64,000 nt of DNA from Thermomicrobiales bacterium (GTDB taxonomy: Bacteria; Chloroflexota; Chloroflexia; Thermomicrobiales; UBA6265), in assembly GCA_045804965.1 (NCBI GenBank), contig JBJMMD010000016.1, positions 206,724 to 270,723 of the forward strand. Reading direction: 5' to 3'. Below are positions 57,381 to 61,741 of the stretch, piece by piece (position 1 is the first letter of the stretch; each line of letters opens with the position of its first letter). The notes beneath the pieces were generated by a model, which ran no database searches, was not told where the DNA came from, and saw only the letters and a program-made list of their open reading frames with translations. Position numbers and translations under genes: made by a program.

Positions 57381-57842
57381 GCGATTTCGCGCATGTGACG
57401 CCCGCACGGGCCGGGCACAATGCTTCTGCCCTCGGATGAGCCGCGTCGAACCTGAAATGCGACCAACTCGTAATTTAATCCGACGCGACTGGAATGTCGG
57501 CGAATGGAGGTCACGCTGTACGGCGTGACGTTACTTTTCCGTAAGCAATACACCGCGCACGAAGGTTTGCCCGGCTCGAAACGCGATGCGTCTGCTAAAG
57601 ACGATCCCGAAACGATTCGGAACTTCCTAAAGCAACTCGACGACGAAGTAGCGGCAGCGTAGTCGCCGAGTTCGACCGCACGCACAAAACGACGAGCGCC
57701 CGGCAAGGATGCTGGGGCGCTCGTTGCGTGTCGGGTCGAATCTGTTGAACCCGGGTCGGCTGGCGGTGAGACTCGGCATCTCGTCATCGCTCCATCGCAG
57801 GACTATAAAGGCGATATATCAGTCAATACCGTTTGAAATAAA

Positions 57843-57878
57843 TGCCGAGGCCGGTTCAAGCTCGAACCGGCCTCGGCA
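57843..57878 (-). terminator. Intrinsic terminator after the 57917 gene
   Basis: TGCCGAGGCCGGTTC-aagctc-GAACCGGCCTCGGCA stem followed by TTTATTT on the minus strand. Confidence 0.7.
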
Positions 57879-57916
57879 GAGAAGGTAATTAAGATTCGGT
57901 TCGCTCGGAACCGAAA

Positions 57917-58192
57917 CTAATCGGCTTCGTCTAGATCACGATAGCTCGTACCAGACTTGGCAAGGCCGCGACTGAGCATGTAACCGATTCCTAGCGCGGT
58001 AACCAGTGTCCAAGCCCACTGTCCATCTAAGCTATCGTCAAACCTACTCGCGATTAATACCGCGGCTACCGCAGCAATGAGGATCATGAGTTCTGTCGTC
58101 TTGAAGGAGGGCTTCGTCTCCTCGCGCAGACGGGTGACAACTCTGTCCTCGACTCTCCCTACACCAATCACTTCGCGATTCGCGGTAACCAC
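57917..58192 (-). CDS. Small two-TM membrane protein
   Basis: ETKPSFKTTE-TM-AWTLVTALGIGYMLSRGLAKSG; pattern I recall from actinobacterial hypothetical proteins. Confidence 0.75.
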   Translation of the reverse strand: MVTANREVIGVGRVEDRVVTRLREETKPSFKTTELMILIAAVAAVLIASRFDDSLDGQWAWTLVTALGIGYMLSRGLAKSGTSYRDLDEAD

Positions 58193-58300
58193 GCCTTACC
58201 CTTTCCGTCGGCCGCCCCTATTCCGCGCCTAGTCTCAGCGACTACCGGCTCGGACCATCCGACCGGCGCCGCCGCGCGTTGGCGAACCACTCGTCATAAA

Positions 58301-58316
58301 GGCAGGAACGATGCCA
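58301..58316 (-). promoter_or_regulatory. Sigma54-type motif TGGCATCGTTCCTGCC (also reads GG-N10-GC on the + strand)
   Basis: GGCAGGAACGATGCC satisfies GG-N10-GC on both strands, between divergent ORFs. Confidence 0.55.
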
Positions 58317-58526
58317 TGGTTCGCCGACCGAGCGGTCTGCCGACTTGCCTGATTAGGCGGCGAGAGTCGGGCCGTCACTGTCTCACCTCAGCACGAGCAC
58401 AGGACCTTTGCGACCACTACCGCACTTCCAACTAGTCGGGCTTGTTCTTTTGGGAATAAAGCGTAAAGTGTGGATGCTCCCGCCACGAGGTATCCGTCTC
58501 ATTCGGCCCACGAATTGAGGTGTGCA

Positions 58527-58907
58527 ATGCCCGAACGACGCGAGGTTACGGAGACCTACTGGACGTGGTGCTCCAAGTGGCATGTGCCTTACCCTTGTCG
58601 AAAGACCCGTGTTGTCACGAAGTGGTGTTACGAGTTTTCGTTCATCATAGTTAGCAACCGGGGTTTCTGGACAAATAACTGGGGCTGTGAGTTCAACATT
58701 CGGTATGAATGGCGGGATTGGCATTTTTTCCCGGTCGGCTTCGACGACTCAACTGTCTACTTCGTAGAAAAATGCTTCACGAACCAACTTGAGAGCAGTG
58801 GTGCATGCTCCTCTGCCGTCGCGGTCGACTACTTGAAGAAAACGCTAGGCCCTGACTTGGCGAGCCTGCTGAATGAAGGCGGGTCTGACAAAGAGACGAC
58901 CGAATAA
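58527..58907 (+). CDS. Hypothetical Cys/Trp-rich protein
   Basis: GAGGTG RBS; WTWCSKWHVPYPCRK...KWCYEF...WGCE...KCF...GAC; visibly AT-richer than the flanks. Confidence 0.65.
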   Translation: MPERREVTETYWTWCSKWHVPYPCRKTRVVTKWCYEFSFIIVSNRGFWTNNWGCEFNIRYEWRDWHFFPVGFDDSTVYFVEKCFTNQLESSGACSSAVAVDYLKKTLGPDLASLLNEGGSDKETTE

Positions 58908-58994
58908 CCACCCGCGTTTTCGTTCGAATTGAGTGGCTTTCCTATCACATCATGGCTATCCCGTCGCTGACGAGGCAACCGGGTCGCACAACGC

Positions 58995-59071
58995 AAAAAG
59001 AACGGCTCCGGGGGAGAGGGGGACCGGAGCCGTTCAGGGAAGGGACGGCCGCGCATTCGACGCGGCAGCCA
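58995..59071 (-). ncRNA. Candidate ~77-nt sRNA with C-rich (anti-SD-like) segments
   Basis: 5' hairpin, UCCCUUCCCU linker, 12-bp terminator stem with UCCCCCUCUCCC loop and UUUUU; promoter motif directly upstream; no ORF. Confidence 0.55.
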
Positions 59072-59081
59072 CAACCGCTAA

Positions 59082-59097
59082 CGCAGCGGATATGCCA
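59082..59097 (-). promoter_or_regulatory. Sigma54-type motif TGGCATATCCGCTGCG
   Basis: TGGCAY, GG-N10-GC; predicted +1 near 59071. Confidence 0.55.
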
Positions 59098-59289
59098 CGA
59101 ACGCCCGGTCAGTCGGCGGCGAGACTGGTCAAGTCGTTGTCATCCCACCGCAGCGCCAAGACGGCGTTATCGAAGTTCTCACCGCGTGGGCAAATGCCAG
59201 GGCCCGGGCAATGACGCGCCGTTCGTCGTCATCAATTCCCGCGATGGTTCTTTCGAGTTCAGCGTCCTCTCAACGCCCTCATAGCGTGC

Positions 59290-59321
59290 ACAGACCAGCG
59301 GCCTTCAGCCCGCTGGTCTGT
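59290..59321. repeat. Palindromic REP-like hairpin
   Basis: ACAGACCAGCGG-ccttcagc-CCGCTGGTCTGT. Confidence 0.5.
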
Positions 59322-59437
59322 GGTCTATGCTCATCGCGATTAGCCGCTCACACGTAGAGATTGGTAACCTAGGTGAATTGCGGCGAGGATCTTGGTTCTT
59401 CGCCCGGTCATCACTGAACCGATTGTAGGAATCGCCC

Positions 59438-61741
59438 TTGCTCTCGTTTCCGCATCCCATACCTAACTCATCAGCTCAGGAGGAACGCGTTGCGGCGAAA
59501 CGTCACAGTTTTCCTTCGCCGAAGTTGGTCATTCAGTTCCTCTTGGTCTTGCTCACCATCGTCGCCGGGTCGAAGAATGCCTCGGCCCACGCCGAGCTAG
59601 TTCGCGCCAATCCAGCCCCGGACTCCATTCTCGGCGCGCCGCCGCAGCACATCGATCTCTGGTTCAGCGAGCGGGTCGACCAAGGAGCGGGGTCGCCGGG
59701 GCTGTCTGTGCTCGACGAAGATGGGCGCGATCTGCAGGTCACGAACCTCCACGTCGATCCCACCGACGCGGAGCACGTGATTGCTGACGTCGCGGGAGCG
59801 AGCGCCGGCACGTACACCATTGTTTGGAGCTCACGCTCAGCCGACGATGGTCACTCCCTCACCGGCAGCTACACGGTGCGAGTCGCGACCGGCCGTGCCC
59901 CTGGCGCCGCGACAACCGAGGGCCAAACGCCGCGCGCCTGGGCGGTCACCACGCGCTGGCTCACCTTCCTCGGCGCCGCGATCGTGGCCGCTGGCTTGCT
60001 CTTTCGCACGATGCTGCAGGGCGGCATAGAAGTGCCTACCTACGCCAACCGCCGCATCAAGATCGTCGCAGTCGGCGCCGCCGTCGCACTCGTCGCAACC
60101 GCGAGCGAACCGTTCCTGCAATCACGATTTCCGCCACCGGGCGCAACCAAACCCGATCTCGGTGACGCGATTGCCGGTCTCCCGAACGCTTGGTGGCTCC
60201 GCCTTGCCGCCGCGGGCGTTGCCCTGCTCATCGGCATCCTCTATCTCATCGCGGGAACCAAGCTCCGCCGGCAAACTCTGCTCGAATGGGCAGGCGCCGC
60301 CGCTGCGTTTTGCACGCTGCTCGGATTGAGCCTCACCAGTCACGCCTCGGCCCGCTCGTCATGGCGCGCGCTGGCCATAGCCTCGGACTATACGCACCTG
60401 GTCTCGGTCGGTCTGTGGACCGGCGGCTTGGTCTTTCTCACCCTCTATTGGCTCAGCCGGGCGCATCGCTCCGAGGGTCCCGATCCGATCCGCCGCTTCT
60501 CCAAGTTCGCCTTAGTGCTGGTGCTCATCGGGATTGCGACCGGTCTCACGAACGCCGGACTTGCGTTACCGACGATCAGGTCGCTCTGGCAGAGCGATTA
60601 CGGCAGAGTCCTCATCGCTAAGGGACTCATCTTGCTTCCGGCGCTTGCGTTGGCAGCGCTTCACCGGCAACGGCTCCGCCATCTCGCCGGACAGGCAGGA
60701 GAAGCGCTTCGGCCGACGATCCGGGTCGAAACCGCGATTGTCGCCTGCGTTGTCCTCGGCGGCACGATCTTGGCCTTGATGGCCCCGCCGGCGAAGGCAA
60801 CCTCCGGCGAGCTTAAGTTGCTCGACCTCGCCGCCCCAGCGGTGAGCGGTTCAGCTTCAACCGATCACCTCATCCGATTCCAGCTCGCCCCAGCGAAGCA
60901 AGGTGCGAACACGATCACGGTGTTCTCGACCGACAAGAAAGGCCAACCGATTCCCAACGACAAGATCGCGCTGGTCCGCATGGACCTATCAAGTCTCGAC
61001 CACGGCGCGATTGAACGAGGACTCGGAGGAACGCCAAACGGTTCTGGCGGCTATACCTTCCAGGGCGACCAGCTCAGCCTCGGCGGGTGGTGGCGGGCCG
61101 ACACGCTCGTGCGCCGGCTCGGTGTCGAAGATGAAACCGCCGCGTTCTATTTCATGCTGCCCGATCCGAACGTCAATGGCTTCGGCGCGCCGAAAACGCC
61201 GAAAACGGATGACGATGCCCACGCGCTATTCCAGCGTGCCCTCGGCACCCTCACTTCGCTCCACAGCATGTCCTACCACGAGCGATTAAGCGGCGGCACC
61301 GGCACCGTCGTCGACTCGGATCACGTCGTGCGCGACGACAACGGCGGCCGTGAACCGGCGATGACGATCACCTCAGGCGACTTCTCGGTCGTCACTATCG
61401 GCAAGAACCAATGGATTAAGGAAGGCAACGGAGCCTGGGAATGGCAGGCAGCGTCGATCGTTGTCCCTCCGTCCCAATGGGGCGACACGTACGACGGCGC
61501 GACCGCTTTCCAACTTGGTACGACCGAGGAGATCGACGGCGCGCAAACCCAGATCGTGACCTTCTACGTCCCGCCAAAACCGCACAGCGTTGCCGCCTGG
61601 TTTGCCTGGTGGATCGACGTCGACACCGGCCATGTAATCCACGAGACGATGATTTCCCGGCAGCACTACATGGTCTGGGACTACGCCGATTTCAACAAAG
61701 ACTTCGATATCCAACCGCCAGCCCCCGTGCCGTCGTCCTAG
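59438..61741 (+). CDS. CopC-CopD fusion with YtkA/FixH-like and C-terminal LppX/LolA-like domains
   Basis: Signal ..ASA|HAEL..P, SADDGH (CopC); SHA, HLVSVGLWTGG, RFS, YGRVLIAK (CopD); LSLGGWW; start uncertain. Confidence 0.85.
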   Translation: MLSFPHPIPNSSAQEERVAAKRHSFPSPKLVIQFLLVLLTIVAGSKNASAHAELVRANPAPDSILGAPPQHIDLWFSERVDQGAGSPGLSVLDEDGRDLQVTNLHVDPTDAEHVIADVAGASAGTYTIVWSSRSADDGHSLTGSYTVRVATGRAPGAATTEGQTPRAWAVTTRWLTFLGAAIVAAGLLFRTMLQGGIEVPTYANRRIKIVAVGAAVALVATASEPFLQSRFPPPGATKPDLGDAIAGLPNAWWLRLAAAGVALLIGILYLIAGTKLRRQTLLEWAGAAAAFCTLLGLSLTSHASARSSWRALAIASDYTHLVSVGLWTGGLVFLTLYWLSRAHRSEGPDPIRRFSKFALVLVLIGIATGLTNAGLALPTIRSLWQSDYGRVLIAKGLILLPALALAALHRQRLRHLAGQAGEALRPTIRVETAIVACVVLGGTILALMAPPAKATSGELKLLDLAAPAVSGSASTDHLIRFQLAPAKQGANTITVFSTDKKGQPIPNDKIALVRMDLSSLDHGAIERGLGGTPNGSGGYTFQGDQLSLGGWWRADTLVRRLGVEDETAAFYFMLPDPNVNGFGAPKTPKTDDDAHALFQRALGTLTSLHSMSYHERLSGGTGTVVDSDHVVRDDNGGREPAMTITSGDFSVVTIGKNQWIKEGNGAWEWQAASIVVPPSQWGDTYDGATAFQLGTTEEIDGAQTQIVTFYVPPKPHSVAAWFAWWIDVDTGHVIHETMISRQHYMVWDYADFNKDFDIQPPAPVPSS

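Follow-up and report, generated by a model that had tools for sequence, protein, structure and literature searches.

A candidate sigma-54-dependent small-RNA gene in accessory DNA of a Thermomicrobiales genome

Described systems and the candidate locus

Small RNAs transcribed from sigma-54-dependent promoters are known from Proteobacteria, with Qrr, CrcZ, NrsZ and Pxr as examples, and C-rich unpaired segments carried on hairpins are found in the 6C RNA of Actinobacteria, the staphylococcal UCCC-motif RNAs (RsaE) and the cuckoo RNAs. The locus considered here lies in a 64,000-nucleotide (nt) stretch of DNA from a Thermomicrobiales bacterium of the Chloroflexota (GenBank assembly GCA_045804965.1, contig JBJMMD010000016.1, positions 206,724 to 270,723), referred to below as the window. 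It consists of a sigma-54-type promoter core on the minus strand followed by a predicted 77-nt RNA that would carry two hairpins, exposed C-rich segments and a terminal U tract. The unit has the -24/-12 promoter and the own terminator of the proteobacterial sigma-54 small RNAs, but conservation of those RNAs extends across genera and their activator sites are defined, whereas the unit is found in one species and showed no sequence similarity to them in an Rfam scan. The same scan gave no match to the 6C, UCCC-motif or cuckoo RNAs at E up to 10.

The original prediction of this unit, made from the letters of the window, had proposed comparison with the known RNA families. An E-value scan of 4227 Rfam families, covering 57500-60500 of the window, a paralogue and a further unit on contigs C25 and C29 of the same genome, and four repeat loci, gained it no family: at E up to 10, a sub-threshold suhB/mmgR match and noise were all that was returned. 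The match to RF00519 (suhB/mmgR) scored 19.8 bits (E 0.64, at 58988-59073 of the minus strand), short of the gathering score of 41, and the paralogue locus (L003) had no suhB match at E up to 10. Since the score is below gathering and the paralogue is unmatched, membership in RF00519 fails. In the alignment, the family consensus cCUCCCU faces CCCUUCCCU in the window copy, and the paralogue has CACCCCGC there, a comparison of only two copies; the resemblance to MmgR is best read as an analogy, not as membership.

In the excerpted text of a review, PMC7143759, MmgR (alpha-r8) of Sinorhizobium meliloti is a 77-nt RNA with hairpins and an anti-Shine-Dalgarno motif, is NtrC-induced, and is listed with an RpoN promoter. 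The layout of the unit is the same, with a C-rich stretch left unpaired between the 5' hairpin and the terminator; MmgR, however, is Hfq-dependent and alphaproteobacterial. The sX13 RNA of Xanthomonas, according to the abstract of PMC3771888, has stable stems with apical C-rich loops and represses mRNAs having G-rich motifs near the start codon. Loop 2 of the unit similarly exposes UCCCCCUCUCCC, but sX13 has three C-rich loops where the unit has one loop plus a linker, no sigma-54 promoter is mentioned for sX13 in that abstract, and no Rfam match connects the two. GlmY is a sigma-54-dependent small RNA of enterobacteria (PMC3162934, excerpted text); the same excerpts report sigma-54 in 'some Chloroflexi' and describe no sigma-54 small RNA from that group.

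Anatomy, promoter type and paralogue of the unit

The promoter motif, hairpin 1, linker, 12-base-pair (bp) stem with its loop, and UUUUU tract that made up the original prediction are all present on the minus strand (Table 1). In TGGCATATCCGCTGC the GG and GC are 10 bases apart, which is the sigma-54 spacing, and the TGGCA/TGC context is present; hairpin 1 begins sixteen bases past this core, and the core of the linker is CCCUUCCC. Hairpin 2 has the form of an intrinsic terminator, a GC-rich stem-loop followed directly by UUUUU on the minus strand, and the plus strand reads AAAAA, the stem and then AGGGAAGG, so that a U tract is found on the minus strand only. A simple terminator scan missed hairpin 2 because it allowed loops of up to 8 nt and this loop has 12. 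The 77-nt RNA is predicted to adopt the two-hairpin fold described at -39.6 kcal/mol, with 58% of the ensemble and z = -6.66, and none of 200 shuffles folded as well; for a 96-nt stretch z was -5.08. Within the 64-kilobase (kb) window TGGCAY-N6-TGC was observed 5 times against 1.23 expected, a number reached by 1 of 100 shuffles. No sigma-70-like promoter was found in 57500-60500 with a simple promoter scan. The nearest protein genes are both on the plus strand, as had been noted from the start: an open reading frame (ORF) of 126/145 amino acids (aa) ending at 58907, and copC/copD from 59438.

The genome to which the window belongs (4.7 megabases in 57 contigs, 61% G+C, 96% complete) contains a paralogue of the unit at C25:202160-202272, with 72% identity (E = 5e-8). 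The similarity spans from about 25 nt before TGGCA to the end of stem 2, which corresponds to a promoter with its RNA. The paralogue's promoter core, TGGCACATCCTCTGC, also has sigma-54 spacing and context and differs from that of the window at two places, T to C at the sixth base of the -24 hexamer and G to T in the spacer. GGCUGCC at the predicted 5' end is common to both copies. Hairpin 1 of the paralogue is GCCAUC/GGUGGC, in which the three changed pairs all still pair, two being altered on both sides and one passing from C-G to U-G. All 24 bases of stem 2 are identical, as are the first 6 loop bases, UCCCCC, and the predicted fold of either 77-nt version has the same two hairpins. The conservation of loop and linker on which the original prediction depended is thus seen in part: UCCCCC, on the 5' side of loop 2, is the one C-rich part common to both copies, but the linker differs (CGUCCCUUCCCU in the window, CACCCCGC in the paralogue), as do the remainder of the loops, the tail and the flanks on either side.

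A covariance model built from both copies scored 130.3 bits for the window copy and 123 for the paralogue, which match it by construction, while no other match exceeded 33.9 bits. For hairpin 1 the model is weak, because MAFFT misaligned the paralogue's hairpin 1 in the seed. On the evidence of the paralogue, the promoter core and the two hairpins are under selection. The case for more than a chance arrangement rests mainly on the paralogue, since the genome carries 117 TGGCAY-N5-NTGC sites and finding such a motif 60-90 nt ahead of a terminator by chance would not be unusual.

The genome is equipped for sigma-54 transcription. Its rpoN is an intact 490-aa frame matching PF04552 at 124.6 bits, and the activator ATPase domain PF00158 has four matches, one strong (250 bits) and three others at 21.8-34.5 bits; the ORF of the strong match, at C26:52560-54017, has a receiver-like N-terminus by eye, the domain search having covered the ATPase domain alone. 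Genome-wide, TGGCAY-N5-YTGC occurs at 70 sites against about 46 expected from base composition, and 56 of the 117 TGGCAY-N5-NTGC sites have, within the next 260 nt, a Shine-Dalgarno sequence with a start codon and an ORF whose third-position G+C (GC3) signal is of coding type. The latter motif also stands about 90-130 nt before the start of homologues of a 91-aa membrane-protein gene, itself located downstream of the unit, at 5 of 6 loci in four genomes (the own genome with two, and the relatives G029, G016 and G070); it was not seen in G071. Because rpoN and one strong activator are present and the motif type is kept before the 91-aa homologues, the sigma-54 reading proposed originally is credible for this organism, the conserved core of the paralogue being in keeping with it, and the promoter type is real in the lineage.

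The anatomy, the sigma-54 machinery, the promoter type in the lineage and the paralogue are direct observations. Built on them, the favoured reading is that the unit is a compact, young, species-specific sigma-54-dependent small-RNA gene of about 77 nt, whose transcription, ends and trans action are predicted; its probability is put at roughly 0.45. Sigma-54 RNA polymerase, activated by the single NtrC-type activator of the genome, would start near 59071, and the RNA would form a protective 5' hairpin and leave the C-rich linker single-stranded. A second C-rich stretch would be displayed in the loop of the 12-bp hairpin, which together with UUUUU would terminate the RNA near 58995. The exposed C-rich stretches would most likely act by base-pairing with G-rich RNA sites, possibly the ribosome-binding regions of the regulon, for example that of the 91-aa gene, or the G-box RNAs of the genome that are described below. 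The unit occupies an accessory island of about 1.9 kb and has one diverged paralogue elsewhere.

If the RNA is real, sigma-54-controlled riboregulation would reach beyond the Proteobacteria, which supply the named examples, to an uncultured soil lineage, and would offer a handle on a single-activator sigma-54 regulon that is stress-related by the look of its genes. Being confined to one species and to accessory DNA, the unit could also show small-RNA genes arising by the copying of a promoter-plus-terminator module. For the present the unit counts as a reasonable, ordinary-looking candidate, not as a demonstrated gene.

Table 1. Coordinates of the candidate unit and of neighbouring and related features (window positions unless a contig, C, or locus, L, is given)
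Feature	Position	Strand	Remarks
Sigma-54-type promoter core	59083-59097	-	TGGCATATCCGCTGC; TGGCAT-ATCCG-CTGC, -24 GG/-12 GC; read from sequence
Predicted 77-nt transcript	58995-59071	-	start placed 12 nt past the -12 C, end placed at the U tract
Hairpin 1	59048-59066	-	6-bp stem GCCGCG (59066-59061)/CGCGGC (59053-59048), loop UCGAAUG
C-rich linker	59036-59047	-	CGUCCCUUCCCU; unpaired in minimum-energy and centroid folds
Hairpin 2	59000-59035	-	perfect 12-bp stem GAACGGCUCCGG (59035-59024)/CCGGAGCCGUUC (59011-59000); 12-nt C-rich loop UCCCCCUCUCCC
U tract	58995-58999	-	UUUUU, completing the intrinsic terminator; from sequence
Second sigma-54-type promoter	58302-58316	-	TGGCATCGTTCCTGC; before the 91-aa gene, 780 nt downstream of the unit
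91-aa membrane-protein ORF	57917-58192	-	
126-aa Trp/Cys-rich orphan gene	58527-58907	+	longest frame from 58470; about 51% G+C in a 61% genome
Accessory island, about 1.9 kb	57381-59437		between an alpha/beta-hydrolase gene and copC/copD
Third sigma-54-like unit	C29:90747-91021 (L158 1501-1775)	+	motif TGGCATGCAATCTGC
G-box loci (own genome)	C25:201942-202012; C29:90930-90993; C36:92514-92584; C11:31413-31479; C47:244213-244264 and 246071-246153		
Five-copy cassette loci	L003 1078-1257 and 1644-1811; L174 1450-1659; also C46, C11, C35		
REP-like hairpins, examples (own genome)	C2:152056; C4:69209; C9:196915		

Counter-evidence and competing explanations

Several results, drawn from comparative, target-pairing and RNA data, weigh against the small-RNA reading. 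Of the homology and covariation for which the original prediction proposed a search, the paralogue with its pair-preserving changes was found, but the covariance model gave no convincing orthologue in the 107 other genomes of the family (108 were searched including the own genome; the unpublished G083 and G099 count in this negative tally alone). A DNA search of 60 relatives gave no copy, with two short chance matches of 25-29 nt, and the loci of the 91-aa homologues hold no copy of the unit. In G001, a genome of the same genus that is 72% complete, about 295 nt separate the hydrolase gene from copCD, compared with 2204 nt in the window, so that the island of about 1.9 kb is missing there, and the 3.1-kb paralogue locus was not found in G001 either. 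The stem-2 pattern occurs at no fewer than 122 places in many phyla, mostly, among the matches listed, as the GGCCCCGG variant; stem 2 is a generic terminator shape, and identity of the stem is therefore not evidence of homology. Partial model matches in G018 and G027, in which a C-rich stretch precedes a stem 2 whose central pair is changed in a compensatory way, were downgraded for this reason (L007, L011).

Among the rejected candidates are the best full-length matches to the model (32.2, 32.0 and 26.8 bits). In G013 the match is part of a coding region and in G130 the terminator of a gene; in G125 it is a genuine sigma-54 promoter, with a leader hairpin and then a protein gene. The single match to a strict promoter-plus-stem pattern in metagenome contigs is unrelated to the unit, and this too counts on the negative side. 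A look-alike on contig C18 of G070 (L165, about 1205-1075, minus strand) has a sigma-54-like motif TGGCATCCAACCTGC, a 7-bp hairpin, a AUCCCCUUC stretch and a second hairpin; it diverges from the promoter of the 91-aa homologue and is not kept in the congener G016.

The proposed targets add to the difficulty. The original prediction had cast the RNA as a trans-acting translational repressor whose C-rich segments would act on ribosome-binding sites, a role that gained no support. Tried against 5249 crude start regions, the linker and loop pair slightly better than with regions inside genes, and no better than ten composition-matched shuffles (mean pairing energies of -12.3 and -12.1 kcal/mol for the real segments, -11.2 to -14.2 for the shuffles), and the best single predicted targets are within the range that shuffles reached. 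Target prediction at start regions thus does not discriminate, and the proposed targeting is indistinguishable from plain C-richness; a trans-acting anti-Shine-Dalgarno role is plausible at most. Of the neighbouring start regions, that of the 91-aa gene pairs with the linker at -21.5 kcal/mol (top 1.6%), which is not significant after four tries, and the other three have no good pairing with the linker. Nor did a crude enrichment analysis of 43 to 47 regions upstream of the candidate promoters bring out any word or dyad, or an activator site shared by them, the promoter set itself consisting of candidates.

The RNA data as a whole give no support for the unit. They consist of four soil metatranscriptomes with unstranded contigs that cover parts of 58300-59500, and a 77-nt RNA is too short to be assembled into such contigs; the discrete minus-strand transcript foreseen by the original prediction was not seen in them. 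The region 58361-58967, which holds the plus-strand 126-aa gene, has contig cover in 4 of 4 libraries. The element is touched in 1 of the 4 (X14), by a 188-nt contig at 59019-59206 with a depth of 7.6 and no mismatch, which spans the proposed promoter and ends within the hairpin 2 loop; the adjacent X14 contigs reach 58967, at depth 6. The intervals 58300-58340, 58968-59018 and 59207-59500 are without contig cover and informative neither way. Among DNA runs, X7-X13 contain 66-97% of the sequence words of the stretch. The X14 contig could be plus-strand read-through with drop-out at the hairpin, a longer minus-strand RNA, or library DNA.

The explanations that compete with a small-RNA gene draw on these same observations. 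If the X14 contig came from a longer RNA of the minus strand, with its start upstream of 59206, the hairpin would be the 3' end of that RNA and the TGGCA an internal sequence, not a promoter. The contig does bridge the motif, but it is unstranded and its depth is close to the 6 of the plus-strand gene, so that it may be plus-strand read-through with a hairpin gap, or DNA; moreover, the minus strand has no ORF and no sigma-70-like promoter in 59100-59440, and the paralogue similarity stops about 25 nt before TGGCA, which leaves a longer RNA only a small chance. The original remark that the terminator has no ORF to terminate holds for the minus strand, where no plausible ORF lies downstream of the unit before the next promoter, but not for the convergent strand: hairpin 2 lies 93 nt past the stop (58907) of the 126-aa gene that is covered in all four RNA libraries. 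Hairpin 2 could then be the terminator of that gene, accompanied by a fortuitous sigma-54-like motif and no RNA gene, given that stems of this type are generic terminators and that the 117 loose motif sites lead to about two chance motif-terminator pairings on a rough estimate. Such an arrangement is improbable, as the U tract is on the minus strand alone and the paralogue locus has hairpin 2 along with the promoter but no 126-aa gene. The unit also faces this gene, with about 90 nt from its stop to the U tract, and convergent sigma-54 transcription might lower expression of the 126-aa gene in cis, by leakage through the terminator or by polymerase collision, with the short RNA as a by-product. 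Efficient termination is to be expected, however, of a perfect GC-rich stem of 12 bp with five U, the paralogue has no convergent partner within 280 nt, and no RNA contig joins across 58968-59018; interference in cis has accordingly been given a very small chance.

The main rival is that the unit is a relic or orphan promoter-leader module, duplicated with loss of its coding part, which makes a short RNA without trans function. It draws on the paralogue, which lacks the U tract, having UCAAAG there instead, and ends 40 nt before a 55-aa ORF, so as to appear leader-like; both of these features also speak against a small-RNA gene. Other sigma-54 promoters in the own genome and in relatives (e.g., C22:115815 and L010) are followed by a GTTAG(A)GG-like box and a 5' hairpin before a protein gene, both copies of the unit lie in accessory, repeat-rich DNA not found in G001, and no conservation beyond the species was found. 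The 55-aa ORF belongs to a five-copy family (C25, C7, C46, C11 and C35), and behind the paralogue a 2-nt deletion shifts its frame; at C25 the unit has the appearance of a promoter-leader that was grafted onto a cassette in decay. On the other hand, stem 2 (24 bases) and UCCCCC show no change while overall identity is 72%, which under even divergence has a chance of about 0.72^24, or about 4e-4, and the changes in hairpin 1 preserve pairing. The other copies of the ORF family that have upstream sequence (C7, C46 and C11) have a different leader of about 300 nt, and this, together with the frameshift, indicates that the unit is not the native leader of that gene family. A relic module is judged unlikely, though not to the degree of the explanations above.

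Neighbouring genes and repeat families

The accessory island contains the 91-aa gene, the 126-aa gene and the candidate unit. The 126-aa protein has 8 homologues with 51-86% identity, mostly of about 126 aa, none of them in the 107 family genomes and with one distant match in the order. For the 91-aa protein, Protein Atlas gives unnamed clusters alone, and the protein's neighbours there list Actinomycetota and Thermomicrobiota with very few records. Two terminator-like hairpins follow the 91-aa ORF, at 57915-57895 and 57878-57843. No Pfam family was found for the 91-, 126/145-, 55-, 59- and 69-aa ORFs considered here. Between the upstream region of the unit and copCD, at 59289-59322, is a strong 13-bp hairpin, CACAGACCAGCGG / CCGCTGGTCTGTG, with a U tract on neither strand. 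By eye, many of the genome's candidate sigma-54 promoters precede predicted small stress-type proteins, and behind several of these promoters come a TTAGAGG-like box and a 5' hairpin.

The ORF family behind the paralogue is part of a five-copy cassette, which comprises a 59-aa ORF, a terminator, a conserved G-rich leader of about 300 nt and an ORF of 55-69 aa. The frameshifted C25 copy has the sigma-54 unit in place of the G-rich leader, and the leader has no Rfam match.

A six-copy element of the own genome, here called the G-box, has the form GGGUUGCAGCCC-AGAGGGAAGGGGGAGG-CAAAC and stands directly before a conserved terminator hairpin, the folding strand being marked by G-U pairs. Several copies have a GCAATTGACA-like (TTGACA-like) box about 90 nt upstream. 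The G-box part was not found in the other family genomes, in which the terminator part alone was found. Five of the six G-boxes contain GGGAAGGG, the exact complement of the linker core CCCUUCCC. One of the G-boxes lies in the third sigma-54-like unit, on C29, where the order is motif, C-rich stretch, strong hairpin without a U tract, G-box and terminator. In the minimum-energy fold of one predicted 249-nt transcript (-141.2 kcal/mol, z = -4.05), the C-rich stretch of this unit pairs with the unit's G-box, and the stretch's duplex energies with the G-boxes extend to about -42 kcal/mol. There is a slim chance that the window unit is one arm of a species-specific RNA-RNA network on accessory DNA, a small-RNA-and-sponge pair. 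The C-rich arm would comprise the window copy, the C25 copy and the unit at C29:90747, and the G-rich arm the six G-boxes; under stress-type sigma-54 activation, the C-rich RNAs would titrate the G-box RNAs, or vice versa.

Two further hairpin families were noted. A REP-like family, CCCTCTCCC-N(3-9)-GGGAGAGGG, often flanked by TTCCCTCACCCC / GGGGTGAGGGAA, has 42 copies in the own genome and 0 in the window; the 10-mer CCCCTCTCCC of this family also occurs within loop 2 of the candidate unit. Near-identical terminator hairpins of the form AACGGCCUCGGGC-UUCG-GCUCGGGGCCGUU occur at many loci of the own genome and also in G001, G018, G118 and others; their folding strand is again marked by G-U pairs, and the family is common to several genomes of the bacterial family.

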